A stretch of 8,355 nucleotides of DNA, taken from UHGV virus genome UHGV-0366079; one strand, given 5' to 3'. A program made the position numbers and the translations under genes. Shown here one piece after another: positions 1 to 6,643 of this stretch (the first letter of the stretch is position 1; every line of letters begins with the position of its first letter). The notes beneath the pieces were generated by a model that was given only the letters and a program-made list of their open reading frames with translations, was not told the origin of the DNA and ran no database searches. This stretch comes from a virus.

Positions 1-40
1 GTCTGCCAAACAAAAGGATTAAGTACCACGAATGGTACAA

Positions 41-78
41 ACGTGCAGTATTACCTACACTGCACGTTCTTTATTGTG
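41..78 (+). terminator. Candidate intrinsic terminator for an upstream plus-strand gene outside the window
   Basis: 9-bp stem acgtgcagt (41-49) / actgcacgt (59-67) with 9-nt loop, followed by T-rich tctttattgtg (68-78). Read by eye, no folding energy computed. Confidence 0.35.
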
Positions 79-110
79 CGGATTTTGAACAGCAACAAAG
101 GATCAAAAGG

Positions 111-539
111 ATGAGTAGAAATAACGAAACAAGCGGCGTTGAACTGGTTGTTGTAGGCGTATTTGCTTTCTGTCTGGCAGTTGTTGCCTGGCTAATGAAA
201 ACTTTCGATGTTGAATGGCAAACAGCACTGGAAACTGCGCCTGGCCTGATAGTCTGGCTGCTTGTTGTCGGTGCGGGGATCTTTTTCGGGATCAAAATGG
301 AAACTGGCCTTATTCGCTGGGGTGCTCCACTGGCGATCGCCCTTCTGATTCCGGTATTCAAGCCAATTCTTAAGGAAGCTGCCGGAGTTCGTGAAACGGG
401 TGGGCTGGTTTTCGATGATATGGTTTCGTGGTATGGAACTGGCTGGGGAATGTCTCTGATGTTCTTCGGGATTCTTATTGTCGGATATGGCCTGCTTTAT
501 GGTGGCACAGAAGAAATTCATATTACTGGTAATCAATAA
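111..539 (+). CDS. Hypothetical small integral membrane protein, 142 aa, about 4 predicted TM helices
   Basis: ATG at 111 with AAAGGA 8 nt upstream. Four hydrophobic stretches (about aa 12-29, 44-61, 70-84, 112-132). First gene of a tight 3-gene cluster. No family recognised. Confidence 0.6.
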   Translation: MSRNNETSGVELVVVGVFAFCLAVVAWLMKTFDVEWQTALETAPGLIVWLLVVGAGIFFGIKMETGLIRWGAPLAIALLIPVFKPILKEAAGVRETGGLVFDDMVSWYGTGWGMSLMFFGILIVGYGLLYGGTEEIHITGNQ

Positions 540-560
540 AACGTAGAAGAGAGGAAACAT

Positions 561-836
561 ATGAAACTGAATCCTGAGAAATACAATAGAAACATTACCC
601 TGCTATGTCCTGTGTGCGGAAATACAGAGATGGAACACGAGGAAGAGTCTGAAGTCGTTAGATGTGTAGGCTGCGGGAAAGAATTTACTAATGATGAGTT
701 AATCCAAGAAAACGGGGTGAGTATTGACGCTCATGTAGATGAAATAAAAGAAGAGTTAACAAAAGACATTCAAAAACAGTTTAACGACATGCTCAAAAAG
801 GCATTTAAGGGAAGTAAGAATATAAGGATCAAATAA
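561..836 (+). CDS. Hypothetical zinc-ribbon protein, 91 aa
   Basis: Strong SD GAGAGGAAA 6 nt before ATG 561. CPVC (aa 16-19) and CVGC (aa 35-38) form a C4 zinc-ribbon signature; charged helical C-terminus. Starts 21 nt after the upstream stop. Confidence 0.6.
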   Translation: MKLNPEKYNRNITLLCPVCGNTEMEHEEESEVVRCVGCGKEFTNDELIQENGVSIDAHVDEIKEELTKDIQKQFNDMLKKAFKGSKNIRIK

Positions 837-1315
837 TGACAACAAGTGATGCCATCGCTTTAGCTGCGCTTGTAGTATCGATTTACACTATCATATCGTC
901 AGAAATGAAATCGAGAAAAAGCGATAGAGAACAAAAGGTTATAAAGGATGAGCAAGACAGGTTACGTAAGTTGCTTCTGGAAAAAGAAACAAAGTCAGCA
1001 ATTAATGAGATGAAAGCTGAGCTTGGTGCTCGCCTCGTAAAAATAGCCAAAAACAACTATAGGCTCAAGATATTTAATAGAGGGAGAGTTGAGGCTAAAA
1101 ATATAGAGATTCATTTCCCTGATAACGATGGAAATGAATATCTTTCAATGCATGATGTAGAAGATAAATTTCCATATGAGGTATTACACCCGCAACATGG
1201 AATTGAAATTTTAGCGGGAATAAGCTTTGGAAGTAAAACTAAATACCGAATAAAACTCATATGGGATGACAATTATAAAAGAAGAAATGAAGAGGAGTTT
1301 TTCATTTCTATATAA
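836..1315 (+). CDS. Hypothetical membrane-anchored protein, 159 aa: N-terminal TM helix, charged coiled-coil-like segment, C-terminal domain
   Basis: ATG 836-838 overlaps the upstream stop TAA 834-836 (TAATG, translational coupling); AAGGA about 10 nt upstream. Hydrophobic aa 5-22, then a K/E/R-rich helix. Visibly AT-rich. No family recognised. Confidence 0.6.
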   Translation: MTTSDAIALAALVVSIYTIISSEMKSRKSDREQKVIKDEQDRLRKLLLEKETKSAINEMKAELGARLVKIAKNNYRLKIFNRGRVEAKNIEIHFPDNDGNEYLSMHDVEDKFPYEVLHPQHGIEILAGISFGSKTKYRIKLIWDDNYKRRNEEEFFISI

Positions 1316-1344
1316 ATTGGTTCGCACAATGACGTTATGCTAAA

Positions 1345-1383
1345 GAGGCCGCTGCGGGATTCGATTTTCGCAGCGGCCTTTTC
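1345..1383. terminator. Rho-independent terminator ending the plus-strand 3-gene operon, possibly bidirectional
   Basis: 11-bp GC-rich stem aggccgctgcg (1346-1356) / cgcagcggcct (1369-1379), 12-nt loop, then TTTT (1379-1382). Sits 30 nt after the stop at 1315. A-rich on the 5' side, so it may also act on the minus strand. Confidence 0.55.
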
Positions 1384-1412
1384 AACATAACGAGTCGTAC
1401 ATTATGCGCACC
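1381..1412 (-). other. dif-like XerC/XerD recombination site with an 11-bp central region (candidate phage att site)
   Basis: Minus strand reads GGTGCGCATAA TGTACGACTCG TTATGTTGAAA. E. coli dif as I recall it is GGTGCGCATAA TGTATA TTATGTTAAAT. XerC arm 11/11, first 4 central nt identical, XerD-like arm 9/11 if a 5-nt longer spacer is allowed. The XerD-like arm abuts the terminator stem. Confidence 0.5.
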
Positions 1413-1450
1413 AATAGTAAGGATGGCGGGAACTGGCGTTACCGGTGCCG

Positions 1451-1684
1451 TCATTGGTCACAGACCGTAATCCACTGGCCCAGGACGTCTTTCAGGCAAT
1501 GTTGGCATAAATCCAGTTTTAAGCGATTACTGTCACCAAAAATTGAACCGTATCCAGCTAAGTGATTAACAGACAGAAACTCATTGAACTCAATGTCATC
1601 TACCACCGTCTTCGCATGGCGACCACAGCGATCGCAGGTCTTCGCACATAACATTACAGTATCGCTGGATGTGAAAAATTGCAT
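1451..1684 (-). CDS. Hypothetical small Cys-rich (putative zinc-binding) protein, 77 aa; phage cargo candidate
   Basis: ATG at 1684..1682 with strong SD GAGGAGA 5 nt upstream. Cys at 13, 17, 20 and CQHC at 61-64 suggest a zinc ribbon. Same strand as the phage genes, downstream of gIV. Confidence 0.6.
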   Translation of the reverse strand: MQFFTSSDTVMLCAKTCDRCGRHAKTVVDDIEFNEFLSVNHLAGYGSIFGDSNRLKLDLCQHCLKDVLGQWITVCDQ

Positions 1685-1755
1685 TTTATCTCCTCGTAAT
1701 GCTGCCGCGCCGAATCAGCAATAACGCTAAAAAAACAGAATTGTTCGGCTTGGCC

Positions 1756-1800
1756 AACCCCTGACACTAACAAAAGCAAGTTTTGTTAGTGTCAGGGGTT
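1756..1800. repeat. Perfect 20-bp inverted repeat with 5-nt loop (hairpin/cruciform); candidate packaging signal, origin hairpin or operator
   Basis: aacccctgacactaacaaaa (1756-1775), loop gcaag, ttttgttagtgtcaggggtt (1781-1800): exact reverse complements. Begins 2 nt after the stop of the 102-aa ORF. The minus-strand T-run lies about 20 nt beyond the stem, so it is not a classical terminator. Confidence 0.8.
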
Positions 1801-1801
1801 A

Positions 1802-2110
1802 TCATATAAACCAATAGACCGTCCTTACGCCATTCTGGTTATCAATAACATAGCCGCATTGTTTCCTTAAAAATTCTTCTGCTAAATCAATGGCTTTTAC
1901 AGAAATCTCATAAGAAGGAAGTAAAGTGTATCCTTTCCCTTCACTGGCAGCTGCTTTGATCGCATCCAGAGTATTATCAATCAGTAACAGAGCAAGTGAT
2001 GCTTCATTTACCTGAGCCGAAGAACTTCTGGCTGCAAGTGTCATTGTTTTTGCTTCTTCCGCTGTAATCGTTCGTTCTGCCAGAGCAGATAAAATCCCAT
2101 AAGAATCCAT
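1802..2110 (-). CDS. Hypothetical protein, 102 aa; phage cargo candidate directly downstream of gIV
   Basis: ATG at 2110..2108 with GGGGT about 6 nt upstream. Helical N-terminal half, beta-like C-terminus. No family recognised. Co-oriented with the phage genes. Confidence 0.55.
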   Translation of the reverse strand: MDSYGILSALAERTITAEEAKTMTLAARSSSAQVNEASLALLLIDNTLDAIKAAASEGKGYTLLPSYEISVKAIDLAEEFLRKQCGYVIDNQNGVRTVYWFI

Positions 2111-2130
2111 TAGTTACCCCAATCAATAAT

Positions 2131-2190
2131 GTCCATTTGATGGATAGCGAGCAGGGCTCACGCACCTACCCGCTATCCATCAAAGTGGAC
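2131..2190 (-). terminator. Large imperfect hairpin at the gIV 3' end; candidate gIV terminator and/or packaging-signal hairpin
   Basis: Arms gtccatttgatggatagcg (2131-2149) and cgctatccatcaaagtggac (2171-2190) pair over 19 bp with one bulged nucleotide; 21-nt loop. Overlaps the gIV stop (2180-2182). In Ff phages the packaging-signal hairpin immediately follows gIV (established knowledge). Confidence 0.4.
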
Positions 2191-3445
2191 GAATGATATG
2201 TGCTGTAAGCAAAATATACATAATACGCTGTTCATTGCTGTCTGCCTTGCTACTGAAAATCCAGCCTATAAGAGGAATTTTACTTATAACTGGAACTGAA
2301 CGCTCGGCATTGCTGAACGATGAATCGATAAGCCCCCCCAATAACAACGTCTGACCATCCTTAATCTGGACTGTCGTCTGAATCTGGCGCTGATTAGTAA
2401 TAATATCGGATGCCTGATCATCATTGCTGATTGAATCAGCGCGAGTGTCGATAGTCAGAACTAGTTGCCCGTTACCCATGACAACAGGCGTTACCTTGAG
2501 AGAAACGCCAACATCATGACGCTCGATAGTCTGAAACGGATTATTTACCCCGGCAGATTCGCCCGTTACCTTTCCGGTGATAAACGGCACATTCTTACCT
2601 ACGGAAATGTAACCAGTCTGACCAGACTGAGTAAGAATACGCGGCGTTGAAATCACCTTAGAGCGTGAATTACTCTGGACAGCACGCAGAGACAGCGCCA
2701 ACACGTTACCATCAAAAATACCAAAAGAACCGCCCGCCGTAGAAAGAGCGCTACCCAGTGCAGAAGTATTAAAGCCCCCCGCAACCTTATGACCGGATGC
2801 AGAACCTGCCGCAAACGATAAATCAACGCCATCAGACAAGCTGGTTTCAAACATCAGCGACTGAATGAGAACCTGATCGCGGGCAACATCCACAGAATTG
2901 ATAAAATCGGACAGAACCGGCAGCAGCTCGTCAGGCGCAGAAACAATCAGCGAGTTATTGCCTGGATAATCCACGACATTACCACCACCATTAGAATCAA
3001 GATAAATTTTAATCAGTTGCTGAACATCGGACGATCTAACTTTTGTCAGCTTAAAATTTCTGACCGTAAGCGCCACAGGTACTGGCTGGTAAGATGGCTC
3101 AGAAGGAAAAGTATCATAAGACTGGTTATCAGAATCATCGGAATCCGAAACCATCTGTGAAGGTAATTTAGACGGCAAAGAGACTACCGCAGGATTGCCA
3201 GAAAGCATGACAAAACCGTTAGCATTCAGAACAGACTTAAAGAAATCATCAATATTTGTTGGATTAACATCAGCATTAAATACGGTTACGTTTCCTTTAA
3301 TATCAGGATTAACAATAACAGGCTTGCCAGTTTTTGAAGAATACCACTGAACAAATGAGCGAACAGATGAATTATTTAAATTAACAGTTTCAGCAGAAAC
3401 GCAGAATGAATAGGCAAATAAAAAAGCAACAATAACAGAGCGCAT
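2180..3445 (-). CDS. IV: Filamentous-phage pIV outer-membrane secretin (virion export channel)
   Basis: Start corrected to ATG 3445 (MRSVIVAFLFAYSFCVSA signal peptide) with AGGAG about 11 nt upstream; the track ORF start 3538 overlaps gI. Collinear with M13 pIV as recalled (NNS..R.FV.WYS, VPFITG.VTGESA.VNNPFQTIER, LLLGGL, SKIPLIG). 421 aa. Confidence 0.9.
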   Translation of the reverse strand: MRSVIVAFLFAYSFCVSAETVNLNNSSVRSFVQWYSSKTGKPVIVNPDIKGNVTVFNADVNPTNIDDFFKSVLNANGFVMLSGNPAVVSLPSKLPSQMVSDSDDSDNQSYDTFPSEPSYQPVPVALTVRNFKLTKVRSSDVQQLIKIYLDSNGGGNVVDYPGNNSLIVSAPDELLPVLSDFINSVDVARDQVLIQSLMFETSLSDGVDLSFAAGSASGHKVAGGFNTSALGSALSTAGGSFGIFDGNVLALSLRAVQSNSRSKVISTPRILTQSGQTGYISVGKNVPFITGKVTGESAGVNNPFQTIERHDVGVSLKVTPVVMGNGQLVLTIDTRADSISNDDQASDIITNQRQIQTTVQIKDGQTLLLGGLIDSSFSNAERSVPVISKIPLIGWIFSSKADSNEQRIMYILLTAHIIRPL

Positions 3446-3452
3446 AATAATA

Positions 3453-3827
3453 TTACTCCTGACAGGTAACAGTCTGTAAATAACGGCCTTTTCTAATAAC
3501 AACACGACAGGCATCTTTAATATCAACGGAATAACCATCTTTAATCAAATCAAAATACTGATATTTCATACCTTTTGCATCAACAAACGTAACGGAAACG
3601 TCAAAGCCAAGTTGTGAAAAAGAATTAATAGAAAGTCGGGGTAAGTCACTGGACGAATCAGGCGTTACCGCCCTCGCCTGTTCAGCATAAGCAGATTTAA
3701 TAGCTGAGATTTCATCAACATTCTTTCCAGACTGGAGCCAGAAACCAAACGCAAGCCCCAGCGCCAAAAAAGAAAGCATTAATATAAGACGGTTCGATTT
3801 GCGAAAATAAATTTTAGTGAGGCGCAT
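3453..3827 (-). CDS. XI: pXI, in-frame internal restart product of gene I (C-terminal 124 aa with the TM segment)
   Basis: Internal ATG at Met241 of pI (MRLTKIYFRK), the same position as pXI in Ff as recalled, with AGAGGA upstream. Expression not provable from sequence. Confidence 0.5.
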   Translation of the reverse strand: MRLTKIYFRKSNRLILMLSFLALGLAFGFWLQSGKNVDEISAIKSAYAEQARAVTPDSSSDLPRLSINSFSQLGFDVSVTFVDAKGMKYQYFDLIKDGYSVDIKDACRVVIRKGRYLQTVTCQE

Positions 3828-4547
3828 ATAATAATTAAATCCTCTGTGAACAGAAAATTGACCGTGCGTGATAAATGGTGGCAAAAGCGAAAATGCGCCA
3901 TGAGGATAATTATCTGTGAACGCTTGTTTGGTATTGTAAGCAGAATAAAGAGATTTTCCTGTATATATCCATTTATCAACAGTGATTGAATTAACATTAT
4001 CACCATATTTGACAATGCCAAAGTGTACCTTTGGTAAAGAAAATCTCGCCCCTGAAACCAAATTCATAATGGAGCCAACAAAAGGAATGTTTAATTTATC
4101 TGAACGGCGACAATAAACAACATGCTCAGCAAGCGCCAGACGAGCTTGCTTATCCATTATCGAAATATCCTGAATCAAAAATATAATATCCCAGCCTAAT
4201 TTTCTGGCATGTAAAAACCAGTCAATAACAGGTTGTCTGTCTTTATCACCCCATGAGCGGGAATTAAACCAAGTACCACATTCATCAAGTACAAGGAGGC
4301 CATTACGGGATTCATCGTAAGATGTATTCCCAATACCAATAGCAAGTAAATCATTTAATGAAGGCTTGTCAGGAATGCGAATAACGCGCGTTTTTTTCGC
4401 ATAACGCCCAACCATAGGCATATTATGCAATTTAAGATCAAGATTAGTGGCAACAGGACAACCCTTAGCAAGTCTTTCCTGTATTCTGGAAACACTAACA
4501 AGTGTCTTGCCTGAGCCTAATTTGCCTGTTACTACATAAACCGCCAT
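3453..4547 (-). CDS. I: Filamentous-phage pI assembly ATPase (Zot-like, Walker A)
   Basis: N-terminus MAVYVVTGKLGSGKTLVSV carries Walker A GxxGSGKT; long blocks match M13 pI as recalled (LLVLDECGTWFN.RSW, RQP.IDWFLHARKLGWDIIFL.QD, ALAEHVVYCRR). One TM segment near aa 254-271. Start abuts the gVI stop (TAAATG). 364 aa. Confidence 0.92.
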   Translation of the reverse strand: MAVYVVTGKLGSGKTLVSVSRIQERLAKGCPVATNLDLKLHNMPMVGRYAKKTRVIRIPDKPSLNDLLAIGIGNTSYDESRNGLLVLDECGTWFNSRSWGDKDRQPVIDWFLHARKLGWDIIFLIQDISIMDKQARLALAEHVVYCRRSDKLNIPFVGSIMNLVSGARFSLPKVHFGIVKYGDNVNSITVDKWIYTGKSLYSAYNTKQAFTDNYPHGAFSLLPPFITHGQFSVHRGFNYYMRLTKIYFRKSNRLILMLSFLALGLAFGFWLQSGKNVDEISAIKSAYAEQARAVTPDSSSDLPRLSINSFSQLGFDVSVTFVDAKGMKYQYFDLIKDGYSVDIKDACRVVIRKGRYLQTVTCQE

Positions 4548-4889
4548 TTAAATCACCCTGTTTGCATAATCAAGAAACTTTTGTTTTAAATCGAAAACAA
4601 AAACACTGATACGAGTAACCATAATAACGTTAACACACGCCTGAAAATGGTCAGGCAATACAGACGCCATTAAATGGGAGAAATCAGCAGGTAAACCGTT
4701 ATACATGACCTCAGCAAGGTACTGCATTAAAAGCGTAACAGTTGTTGTAATTAATGCGACCAATGCAAAGGCGATTAATCCTGTTCTGGTAGCAAGTCGA
4801 GCTAAAAAACTCGCCACATAGCCAATAAACAAAGGAACAAGACCAATAAGAAAACGCAACAATGCAGGAATACCTAATAATAAAGGCAT
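4548..4889 (-). CDS. VI: Filamentous-phage pVI minor coat protein
   Basis: [14 protein letters not shown]... hydrophobic, about 113 aa, similar to M13 pVI as recalled (LLGIP.LLRF, FD.KQK). ATG 4889..4887 overlaps the gIII stop TGA 4891..4889 (TGATG); AAGGGGGTGA RBS upstream. The track start at 4892 is a GTG one codon upstream. Confidence 0.85.
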   Translation of the reverse strand: MPLLLGIPALLRFLIGLVPLFIGYVASFLARLATRTGLIAFALVALITTTVTLLMQYLAEVMYNGLPADFSHLMASVLPDHFQACVNVIMVTRISVFVFDLKQKFLDYANRVI

Positions 4890-6151
4890 CACTCACCCCC
4901 TTTGCGAAGCAATGAAGTTAAAGAAGTAAAGACATACCAGAACGTAAGGCAATAAAAAACCCATGAAAGAACATCTTTAATAGTCAGTAATTTATCGCAA
5001 CCAATATCAATCTGATAAACCTCACCGGGAAAAATAATAAAATCAGAGCAGCCGTTACCATTGGGTAAATTAGGCAGCATAGCACCTTTATTTAAAAACG
5101 CTTCCCATAAAGCACCGTGAGAATCCTTTTCAATTCCCAATTCAGAATCAGCCAAAGTAGAAGCGCCATCTAATTCAGAGTCGCCCTTTCCATAACGAGA
5201 ATCACCACCTGAAGGGTCAGCAAAACGGCCAGCCCCCCGCGTAAGATTGTTAATGGAATCGTCAAGACGATTTATATTATTCCTGGTTTGTTCATCGGCA
5301 TTTTTTTTATCATCTGATGAAGTGTCTTTCTCCGTTAATTTATCATGAATATCGCTGGCTATTTTGGGTGAAGCACCTTCGATCGCAGACTGAATATCAC
5401 CTTTAGAAAGACTGGAACCACTAGAGCCACCGCCAGAACTACCGCCAGAACTACCGCCACCGGACTCACCACCGCCAGACTCACCACCACCGGACTCACC
5501 ACCGCTGGACTCACCACCGCCAGACTCACCACCACCATTTTGGGGGGTTGAGGGTTTATCAGAGGGGTCAGCTACAGCACCTGTAGGCTTCCATGTTGCA
5601 GCGCAAACAGTACCATCACCCTGACAAACAATGACACCAGTAGCCTCATATTCACAGCCGTTATAGTAGATATAGCGACCACCATCATATGAATCAACAT
5701 TATTAAATACACCTTCTTCTGGCGGCTTCGCTTCACAAATTTCTTCTGGTGTCGGGTCAGTAGGTTTTTCATCAGGAACAGAACGCTGAATATTACCAAC
5801 AATATAAGCCGTTAAAGACCAATATTTATCCTTCTGCCCTGGTGAATCGCTGTAAGTACAATCGCCAGTAAAAACAAGACGGAATTCAGAATCAGGCCAG
5901 ATACCCTCATAAGTTGGTTTAATCCGAGTAAATACACTCTGAGCACTGGATTTAGCACCCTGACAAGCGGAGGCCTGCATAGCAGCATCAATATAGTAAA
6001 CCGTTATCTTAGAGCCATCCTGATTGGTTATTTGCTTACTTTCAGCGTAGGCAGAACTTTGATAAGTGGATTTAGTAATGCTTTCCCATGACTCAGCATG
6101 TGAAAAAGGAGAAATGAGGACAGCGGAAAGAATTAATATTTTCCTTCTCAT
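4889..6151 (-). CDS. III: Filamentous-phage pIII adsorption protein: divergent N-terminal domain, N1 (TolA-binding)-like domain, Gly-rich linker, C-terminal membrane anchor
   Basis: Start set at ATG 6151 ([19 protein letters not shown] signal peptide); the track extension to 6295 overlaps gVIII and the terminator. [26 protein letters not shown] resembles M13 N1 (YEGCLWNATGVVVCTGDETQCYGTW); GGGES repeats; C-terminus CDKL...FWYVFTSL resembles M13 CDKI...FMYVFSTF. 420 aa. Confidence 0.85.
5424..5536 (-). repeat. Tandem 15-nt repeats encoding the Gly/Ser/Glu linker (GGGES units) of pIII
   Basis: Plus strand shows iterated ggactcaccaccgcc / agactcaccaccacc units, translating on the minus strand to [39 protein letters not shown]. 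Confidence 0.8.
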
Positions 6152-6160
6152 AGTAACCCG

Positions 6161-6188
6161 CTTTAATAAAGGGGCAACGAGTGCCCCT
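6161..6188 (-). terminator. Intrinsic terminator between gVIII and gIII
   Basis: Minus strand AGGGGCA-CTCGT-TGCCCCT (7-bp GC-rich stem, 5-nt loop) followed by TTTATT, 10 nt after the gVIII stop. Ff phages carry a terminator at this position (established knowledge). Confidence 0.6.
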
Positions 6189-6197
6189 GAGTGAAAT

Positions 6198-6440
6198 TCA
6201 AACCGCTTTTGAAGAGAATTTTTTGAAAATACGAATGGCAAGCCCAGCGCCAACCACAGCAACAACAACAGGCCATACTTTACCAATGAGATCATTTGCC
6301 TGAGTCAACAAAGCATCCATTGCCTGACCTGCATAATCAGTACCACCTGTAGCGCCTTCAGCCGCAAAAGAACTTGCAGAAATAAAAAGCGCAGTTGAAG
6401 CCAGAGCAATTTTATATTTAACAGTAGACAGAATTTTCAT
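6198..6440 (-). CDS. VIII: Filamentous-phage pVIII major coat protein
   Basis: 80-aa precursor: signal peptide ending SSFA with cleavage before AEG, hydrophobic core [15 protein letters not shown], basic C-terminus [11 protein letters not shown] (compare M13 KLFKKFTSKAS). GGAG 9 nt upstream of ATG 6440. Confidence 0.9.
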
Positions 6441-6459
6441 AGGAATAACTCCATTAAGG

Positions 6460-6555
6460 TTACATTAATCGGTCAGAAAATGATTTAAATGAACCGACCG
6501 CATAGAAAAGGGCAAAACCAAAGGTATAAGCCCCGAAGAAATAAACGATATACAT
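6460..6555 (-). CDS. IX: pIX-like minor coat protein, 31 aa
   Basis: MYIVYFFGAYTFGFALFYAVGSFKSFSDRLM: tiny hydrophobic peptide just upstream of gVIII, resembling M13 pIX (32 aa) in size and the RLM motif. ATG 6555..6553 overlaps the gVII stop (TAATG). Confidence 0.6.
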   Translation of the reverse strand: MYIVYFFGAYTFGFALFYAVGSFKSFSDRLM

Positions 6556-6641
6556 TAACGAAAGACCCCCGCAGTAATCGCGCCGAGGCCAAAAGAAATA
6601 ACGATGCCAGACGCTATCAAAATTTGAATAACATCGTCCAT
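6555..6641 (-). CDS. VII: pVII-like minor coat protein, 28 aa (absent from the ORF track; found by hand translation)
   Basis: ATG 6641..6639 lies 2 nt after the gV-position stop; encodes MDDVIQILIASGIVISFGLGAITAGVFR, a single hydrophobic helix; stop TAA 6557..6555 overlaps the gIX start. Position and size match Ff gVII (33 aa). Confidence 0.55.
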   Translation of the reverse strand: MDDVIQILIASGIVISFGLGAITAGVFR

Positions 6642-6643
6642 AT

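Follow-up and report, generated by a model that had tools for sequence, protein, structure and literature searches.

The hairpin at positions 2131-2190 (minus strand) of the virus genome UHGV-0366079 is very probably the packaging, or morphogenetic, signal of a UPΦ-type filamentous phage. By means of a packaging signal, a filamentous phage selects the DNA strand that is wrapped into the virion; a signal of the Ff/IKe type is expected to make the encapsidation of single-stranded DNA (ssDNA) efficient in cis, and its deletion to lower the phage yield approximately 100-fold. The first-pass annotation had proposed this hairpin as the best positional candidate for such a signal, and the proposal is now strengthened by homology to the signals of phages I2-2 and IKe, by compensatory changes between the two arms and by a strand asymmetry in stability, so that the packaging reading rests on homology, position, covariation, strand bias and the presence of cognate proteins. 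A packaging signal is an expected component of a known kind of phage. Neither a packaging signal nor a hairpin is mentioned in the published description of the UPΦ phages (Shapiro & Putonti 2020, PMC7307601).

The stretch of DNA that was analysed, hereafter the window, is 8,355 nt long and is one complete circular unit, because a 100-mer running across its end and start is contiguous in E. coli UM146, and a 7,938-nt circular Salmonella episome (NZ_CP140410) has the last 60 bases of the window joined directly to the first 60. The core inovirus genes all lie on the minus strand of the window, and the packaged viral strand is therefore its reverse complement. These genes are gII (6973-8067), gV (6644-6961), gVII (6555-6641) and gIX (6460-6555), whose products of 28 and 31 aa are the two presumed tip proteins that bind the packaging signal, gVIII (6198-6440), gIII (ending at 4889), gVI (4548-4892), gI (3453-4547) and gIV (2180-3445). 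The product of gI is a Zot-type assembly ATPase (Pfam Zot, 6.2e-41; PHROG 1675, "protein I of M13") and that of gIV is a secretin (Pfam Secretin, 6.6e-43, with N0 and Secretin_N domains; PHROG 1012, "protein IV of M13"), which starts at Met 3445 in agreement with the RefSeq annotation. Beyond gIV are two UPΦ accessory genes, ORF h1 (1802-2110, minus strand, 102 aa), which starts 21 nt past the hairpin, and ORF h2 (1451-1684). A tblastn search of the INPHARED phages with h1 gave no match. A further small ORF crosses the ends of the window, starting at approximately 8235 (plus strand) and ending at approximately 31 after the wrap; it is annotated in UM146 as a 60-residue hypothetical protein and is probably a regulator.

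The phage is a UPΦ901-type, dif-integrating, Lineavirus-like inovirus of E. coli. Phages of the UPΦ901 family have IKe/I2-2-like core genes, a dif-like site and reverse-oriented cargo ORFs, with h1 and h2 occupying a region that is intergenic in IKe, I2-2 and M13, and the authors who described them failed to obtain new infections (PMC7307601). The window carries the core genes, both h1 and h2, and a dif-like attP used for integration at dif, placing it among the UPΦ phages (Lineavirus sensu lato). A prophage matching the window at 98-99.6% was found in 47 complete E. coli genomes, and parts of the window in many more. Of 5,426 complete E. coli genomes, 50 (NZ_CP092647 among them) contain the hairpin region itself, which was found at 105 places in total, with a median of 2 and a maximum of 16 copies per genome; this is consistent with tandem prophage arrays at dif. 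The UM146 prophage adjoins a complete dif sequence, with hipBA on the other flank, and is circularly permuted with respect to the window, its junctions falling at 1380-1410 or thereabouts (about 1400).

The position of these junctions bears on whether the hairpin could be a recombination site. XerCD-integrating phages can use folded hairpins as attP, and the window phage does integrate by XerCD; the junctions, however, lie at the XerC arm TTATGCGCACC, away from 2131-2190, and this rules out an Xer/attP role for the hairpin. Chance is excluded as an origin of the palindrome by the folding z-scores, by the covariation and by conservation in IKe and I2-2, which do not integrate. The probability is accordingly vanishingly small that the palindrome arose by chance or serves recombination and plays no part in assembly.

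The attP occupies window positions 1378-1410, where the UM146 junctions are found, and its site TTCAACATAACGAGTCGTACATTATGCGCACC has the XerC arm and the adjacent TACA in common with E. coli dif. Directly upstream of it, GGCCGCTGCG...CGCAGCGGCC followed by TTTTC (1343-1385) resembles a rho-independent terminator of the plus-strand cargo operon, and positions 1310-1408 are also found in many Klebsiella and Pantoea plasmids at 86-99% identity. The reverse-oriented cargo (111-1315, plus strand) encodes a 142-aa membrane protein, a 91-aa zinc-ribbon protein of the ECs_2282 family and a 159-aa protein, all three with strong matches to PHROGs of unknown function. The Salmonella episome carries a Doc toxin in place of this cargo.

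On the viral strand, the hairpin has 27 bp in total, two 1-nt bulges and a 4-nt loop. It was delimited by folding, by a covariance model (R1) and by homology to the annotated signals of I2-2 and IKe. A 5-bp outer stem (2186-2190 with 2131-2135) is followed by a bulged C (2185), a 20-bp stem (2165-2184 with 2136-2155), a bulged T (2164), a 2-bp apical stem of G-C pairs (2162-2163 with 2156-2157) and a GTGA tetraloop (2158-2161). The 5' arm takes in the gIV stop codon, TGA (minus strand, 2182-2180), and the hairpin and gIV overlap by 11 nt. The first-pass annotation was thus correct that a hairpin overlaps the gIV stop codon, the inverted repeat spanning exactly 2131-2190, and the 19-bp stem with one bulge that it described corresponds to the 5 + 14 bp of outer stem interrupted by the bulged C. 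Its 21-nt loop is not a loop on the viral strand, where these bases pair as 6 bp (two of them G·T), the bulged T, the two G-C pairs and the GTGA tetraloop. The apex seemed unpaired on the plus strand of the window because the two G·T wobbles turn into A·C mismatches there.

The viral-strand DNA fold has a free energy of -24.5 kcal/mol, against -7.4 ± 2.2 kcal/mol for shuffled sequences (z -7.6, 0/200), and the fold as RNA reaches -46.9 kcal/mol (z -9.1, 0/200 shuffles). The complementary strand folds less well, at -21.1 to -21.4 kcal/mol, with weaker pairing at the apex. The element is therefore a long hairpin, being imperfect, at least 20 bp in length and far more stable than expected by chance. 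In a window-wide search for inverted repeats with arms no more than 120 nt apart, the only others with arms of at least 20 nt were at 1333-1392, 1756-1800 and 7623-7670, the last being a weak overlapping palindrome that is 70% complementary. An Rfam scan of the window (E up to 1) returned nothing at the hairpin and only a weak, unrelated match at 1329-1380.

As judged by sequence alignment, the hairpin is homologous to the signals of I2-2 and IKe, a relationship that goes beyond analogy of position. In a sensitive blastn search of phage records with window positions 1-2400, positions 2142-2400 align to the end of I2-2 gIV and run into the feature annotated as "morphogenetic signal". The I2-2 and IKe signals used for comparison are database annotations, at 2260-2330 of X14336 and 6141-6196 of X02139, respectively. 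All three hairpins overlap the gIV stop by 11-14 nt. In a three-way alignment the apex, GGGTAGGTGCG-NN-AGCCCTGC, is invariant and the lower stems differ; the apical motif GGGTAGGTGCGTGAGCCCTGC (2151-2171, minus strand), which is the sequence earlier taken for a loop, is the same in the window, I2-2 and IKe except for two loop bases. This apex also includes the motif CGGGT...GGTG, which has been placed on the ascending limb of the Ff packaging signal (Russel & Model 1989, as quoted in bioRxiv 10.1101/2023.12.30.573655). Exact matches to the apical motif in IMG/VR were located at gIV ends in Lineavirus-like contigs in 13 cases out of 13. A comparison with the signals of IKe, If1 and f1 had been proposed for this hairpin; the IKe signal proved to be homologous in sequence, while the If1 and f1 hairpins occupy the same position and have an apex of another class.

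To place the hairpin among its relatives, 47 viral and 80 genomic loci encoding relatives of pIV were collected. Every locus with a pIV at least 48% identical to that of the window, and with sequence available downstream, has a long hairpin at or just past the gIV stop. Absence of a hairpin from relatives had been named beforehand as evidence that would count against a signal at this site, and the opposite was found: the element is present in I2-2, IKe, If1, prophages of Photorhabdus and Xenorhabdus, and an f1-derived contig with the classical Ff signal, the f1 signal being experimentally defined. More distant pIV relatives at 41-43% identity, from halophilic gammaproteobacteria of the Halomonas group, had no hairpin at the gIV end. 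The hairpins fall into two apex classes, one in IKe, I2-2 and the UPΦ phages (GGTGCG-loop-GCCC with a bulged T) and the other in Ff, If1 and Photorhabdus (built around GCGCAGCG). A contig in a "Candidatus Nanosynbacter" MAG (L065) contains a UPΦ phage with a pIV 100% identical to that of the window and a hairpin region that departs from the window at one loop base only (GTAA for GTGA); another, filed under a "SAR11 cluster bacterium" single-cell genome (L071, JPUP01000095), has the classical f1/M13 intergenic sequence. Both are probably the result of contamination or mis-binning.

Covariation was measured on 16 distinct IKe-class sequences aligned with MAFFT, an alignment not fitted to any structure, using the 27 pairs of the window fold. 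Of the cells in these pairs 74% are paired, and double-sided changes occur in 15 of the 27 pairs. The covariation score was 0.373, against 0.200 ± 0.019 in shuffled alignments (0/500) and at most 0.20 in every slid register; on a model-fitted alignment, which leans towards the structure, it was 0.420. RNAalifold recovered only the 8 apical pairs from the MAFFT alignment, because of indels that misalign the lower stems. The apex has a mean pairwise identity of 0.77 and the overlapped gIV codons one of 0.74, and the values fall to 0.56 in the lower 5' arm, 0.43 in the lower 3' arm and 0.33 in the outer 3' arm; the 5' arm is partly constrained by gIV coding. Comparison of the IKe, I2-2 and UPΦ phages thus separates an invariant apex from a freely co-varying lower stem. 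In this class of signal, the lower stem probably needs only to be double-stranded, and the apex is the likely determinant of specificity.

The covariance model R1 matches the window at 2125-2196 on the minus strand with 82.7 bits (E 4e-24), and scores IKe and I2-2 at 61-77 bits. R1 was built from these sequences, including the window, and its scores are in part high by construction; what is informative is that the window and every related genome yield a single match, which invariably falls at the gIV stop of the viral strand, whereas the reverse strand scores only approximately 17 bits. The viral strand was also the more stable one, by 3.2-10.5 kcal/mol, in all 22 hairpins tested (16 of the IKe class, 3 of the If1 class, and 1 each from Xenorhabdus, Photorhabdus and f1). 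The excess arises from G·T pairs, of which each hairpin has 1-5, and one T·G pair is retained in 12 of the 16 IKe-class sequences. In these predicted folds, the bias argues for a function in the viral sense, although the asymmetry of G·T or G·U pairs would be the same for ssDNA and for mRNA.

The same apex occurs outside phage genomes. A scan of metagenomes for the apex motif returned at least 80 loci, most of them matching the short apex alone and, by a rough estimate, about as numerous as chance apex-only matches would be in such a collection; only R1 matches of at least 30 bits were used. Among the metagenome loci, 11 are UPΦ- or I2-2-like phages, and 8 contigs lack pIV and have a long hairpin whose apex is the same and whose lower stem is new. 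Within this group of 8, the ORFs of L145 were read and include a Rep_1 rolling-circle replication protein, and L223, L220, L156 and L161 have the same hairpin and flanking sequence. The hairpin region of L145 matches Col(pVC)-type plasmids of 1.5-2.4 kb. A search of plasmid records found the hairpin itself in 48 of them, for the most part from Klebsiella, E. coli and Salmonella. In pYPE10-2k (L265, NZ_CP041446), a Col(pVC) plasmid where the apex hairpin lies at 1979-2025 on the plus strand, the non-coding region (1575-2137 plus 1-578) is a mosaic of phage intergenic elements with 79-90% identity overall in the segments flanking the hairpin. A segment 79% identical to the minus-strand origin hairpins of IKe and f1 comes first, followed by the apex hairpin, then by sequence 89% identical to the viral-strand origin hairpins of IKe, and last by a hairpin common to I2-2 and window positions 37-66.

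A second kind of small element is represented by L159, a circle of approximately 2.05 kb (its contig ends overlap) whose coding content is limited to a gII (Phage_CRI) homologue and a 124-aa ORF. Its non-coding part contains an f1-like minus-origin segment and the apex hairpin (1684-1753, minus strand), and L197 has nearly the same hairpin and flanks. L159 may be a mini-replicon with gII alone, whether a defective miniphage or a satellite.

Retention of the hairpin where there is no gIV, and beside the other phagemid cis elements in the Col(pVC) plasmid, supports a role in packaging. The arrangement of these elements suggests that Col(pVC) plasmids may be natural phagemids or satellites of Lineavirus-type phages. 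The Shewanella element pDolos is a precedent, and its authors left open whether other rolling-circle plasmids do likewise. A tentative extension of this idea, which we consider possible but somewhat less than even in likelihood, is that the apex is a sequence-specific "address" for pVII and pIX of the IKe type, and defines a class of packaging specificity to which IKe, I2-2 and all UPΦ phages belong, and that it was captured together with IKe/f1-like minus-strand and plus-strand origin elements by the widespread Col(pVC) plasmids and also by the approximately 2-kb gII-only minicircles, both of which would travel as natural phagemids or satellites in Lineavirus-type virions among the Enterobacteriaceae. 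The apex shared with small rolling-circle plasmids suggests a testable route by which plasmids could spread via filamentous phages.

An alternative to packaging is that the hairpin works at the level of RNA, as a terminator or attenuator of the gIV transcript or as a stabiliser of its 3' end, and sets read-through into h1 and h2. The hairpin is placed between two co-oriented ORFs, its RNA fold is very stable as noted above, G·U pairs fit RNA as well as G·T pairs fit DNA, the IKe annotation also carries "pot. transcription termination" and the sequence just past the hairpin of Col(pVC) plasmids is ATTTTCGTTTTG. A rho-independent terminator, however, consists of a G+C-rich stem-loop and a run of T/U, and in the window no T-run lies past the stem, the 3' flank being ATTATTGA; nor is a T-tract common to the 3' flanks of the relatives. 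A scan for terminators and promoters made no call at or beside the hairpin. The h1 gene, preceded by a GGGG Shine-Dalgarno sequence, starts on the same strand just downstream, and since there is no promoter-like site between it and the hairpin, full termination would silence it. In plasmids and minicircles without gIV, moreover, the apex of an RNA element tied to that gene would not be expected to stay invariant. The suggestion in the first-pass annotation that the signal doubles as a terminator is thus unsupported in this phage, where partial termination is still conceivable, and a purely RNA-level role with no part in packaging seems very unlikely.

The hairpin could also be part of the complementary-strand (minus-strand) origin, that is, a single-strand initiation signal priming conversion of the ssDNA to the double-stranded form. 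Its stability bias does indicate function on the viral strand, it directly follows the minus-origin-like segment in Col(pVC), and the rest of the window yielded no IKe/f1-like minus origin. Hairpin A of the Ff phages is nevertheless dispensable for complementary-strand synthesis. In IKe and I2-2, the homologous hairpin is annotated apart from the minus-origin hairpins, approximately 140 nt upstream of them, and the window has kept the hairpin without that type of minus origin, which shows the two to be uncoupled. We regard this alternative as most unlikely. A blastn comparison of the IKe and I2-2 intergenic regions with the window found only the packaging-signal hairpin and one I2-2-like hairpin at 37-69, with no IKe/f1-type minus or plus origin. 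The hairpin at 37-69, AACGTGCAGT...ACTGCACGTT, is 94% identical to I2-2 positions 2666-2699, is also found in Col(pVC) plasmids beside the IKe-type plus origin, and is a candidate part of the viral-strand origin of the I2-2/UPΦ type.

A second hairpin, at 1756-1800, had been listed beside 2131-2190 as a candidate for the packaging signal, which would leave 2131-2190 with another role. This hairpin lies on the same strand, just past the h1 stop, its 20-bp stem is perfect, and where it is kept in relatives it shows the same viral-strand bias from G·T pairs (-15.2 versus -6.6 in L013, and -13.2 versus -10.1 in L012). Its distribution argues against it: the hairpin is present in the window group, L012, L013 and L021, but absent from L019, L020, L022 and L025, as it is from every IKe/I2-2-like genome, and these phages cannot do without a signal. 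Within the plasmid collection it is confined to UPΦ elements, R1 does not match it, and it has no similarity to any annotated signal. The first of the two candidates was therefore upheld and the second was not, being confined to a subset of UPΦ phages; that 1756-1800 is the signal is extremely improbable. As no minus-strand origin of the IKe/f1 type is present, 1756-1800 may serve as the minus-strand origin instead.

If 2131-2190 is the packaging signal, proteins able to recognise it are expected in the same genome, and gVII, gIX and gI are all there. The C-terminal 14 residues of window pVII, ISFGLGAITAGVFR, match those of IKe, VSFGLGAITAGVFR, at 13 of 14 positions, the last 13 being identical, and the C-terminal half of pIX, GFALFYAVGSFKSFSDRLM, is similar to its IKe counterpart, GFALFYGIGFFKSISNRII. 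Wherever the IKe-type apex occurs in phages, pVII and pIX of the IKe type accompany it; none were found on the part of the If1 genome examined (L033, bases 544-7821 of 8454). In Ff phages, pI is genetically linked to use of the packaging signal. There, pV leaves the signal uncovered, and recognition is by the C-termini of pVII and pIX (PMC10175506; bioRxiv 10.1101/2023.12.30.573655). By analogy with Ff and IKe genetics, from which we infer the steps of binding and packaging, the 60-nt segment of viral ssDNA would fold into its 27-bp imperfect hairpin, which would remain uncoated by the gene V protein and be placed at one end of the pV-ssDNA rod. The membrane-anchored pVII and pIX, through their C-terminal parts, would then recognise it jointly with the pI assembly ATPase, and this recognition would start extrusion through the pIV secretin and fix the orientation of the DNA in the virion. 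The apex (GGGTAGGTGCG-loop-GCCCTGC, with the bulged T) would probably be what determines specificity in signals of the IKe/I2-2/UPΦ class. A likely assembly signal is thereby pinned down for a prophage family that resides at dif in approximately 1% of complete E. coli genomes, often in tandem arrays, and the separation of apex from lower stem offers a concrete design rule for IKe-class phagemids and for tests of cross-packaging among IKe, I2-2 and UPΦ phages.

The closest known systems are the signals of the lineaviruses I2-2 and IKe, which, like that of the window, lie on the same strand at the gIV stop, have a long imperfect stem, a bulged T and a tetraloop, and are accompanied by pVII and pIX of the same type. 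The window differs from them in having its own lower stem sequence (TTTGATGGATAGCG / CGCTATCCATCAAA) and a more perfect helix, of 27 bp compared with 21 in IKe. What follows the signal is also different: in IKe and I2-2 it is the minus and plus origins, whereas in the window it is h1, h2, the attP and the reverse-oriented cargo operon, so that in UPΦ phages the signal and the origin region are separated by approximately 2.4 kb of cargo genes and attP, unlike the arrangement in Ff and IKe.

Hairpin A of the Ff phages (f1, M13 and fd) resembles the window hairpin in being long and imperfect, in starting at the gIV stop, in carrying CGGGT...GGTG on its ascending limb and, in f1, in being more stable on the viral strand (-29.7 versus -24.3). 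Its apex is different (…GGTTACGCGCAGCGTGACC…) and is not detected by R1, and the T-rich sequence downstream makes a terminator role plausible there, unlike in the window. The loop sequence of the Ff signal has been reported to be dispensable (bioRxiv 10.1101/2023.12.30.573655), in contrast to the invariant apex of the class to which the window belongs. The hairpins that follow gIV in If1-type phages and Photorhabdus prophages share the position and the viral-strand bias of the window hairpin but form a separate apex class, C(T/A)C(C/A)CTGCGCAGCGGGG, and R1 has no match at the If1 hairpin. Signals of the φLf family of Xanthomonas phages are 20-26 nt long with stems of 7-8 bp, lie mostly inside the replication gene and are orientation-independent (bioRxiv 10.1101/2023.12.30.573655). 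The window phage would have in common with the φLf family a cis-acting DNA hairpin for encapsidation in an XerCD-integrating inovirus, and differs from it in that this hairpin is a long one of the Ff/IKe type, placed at the end of gIV.
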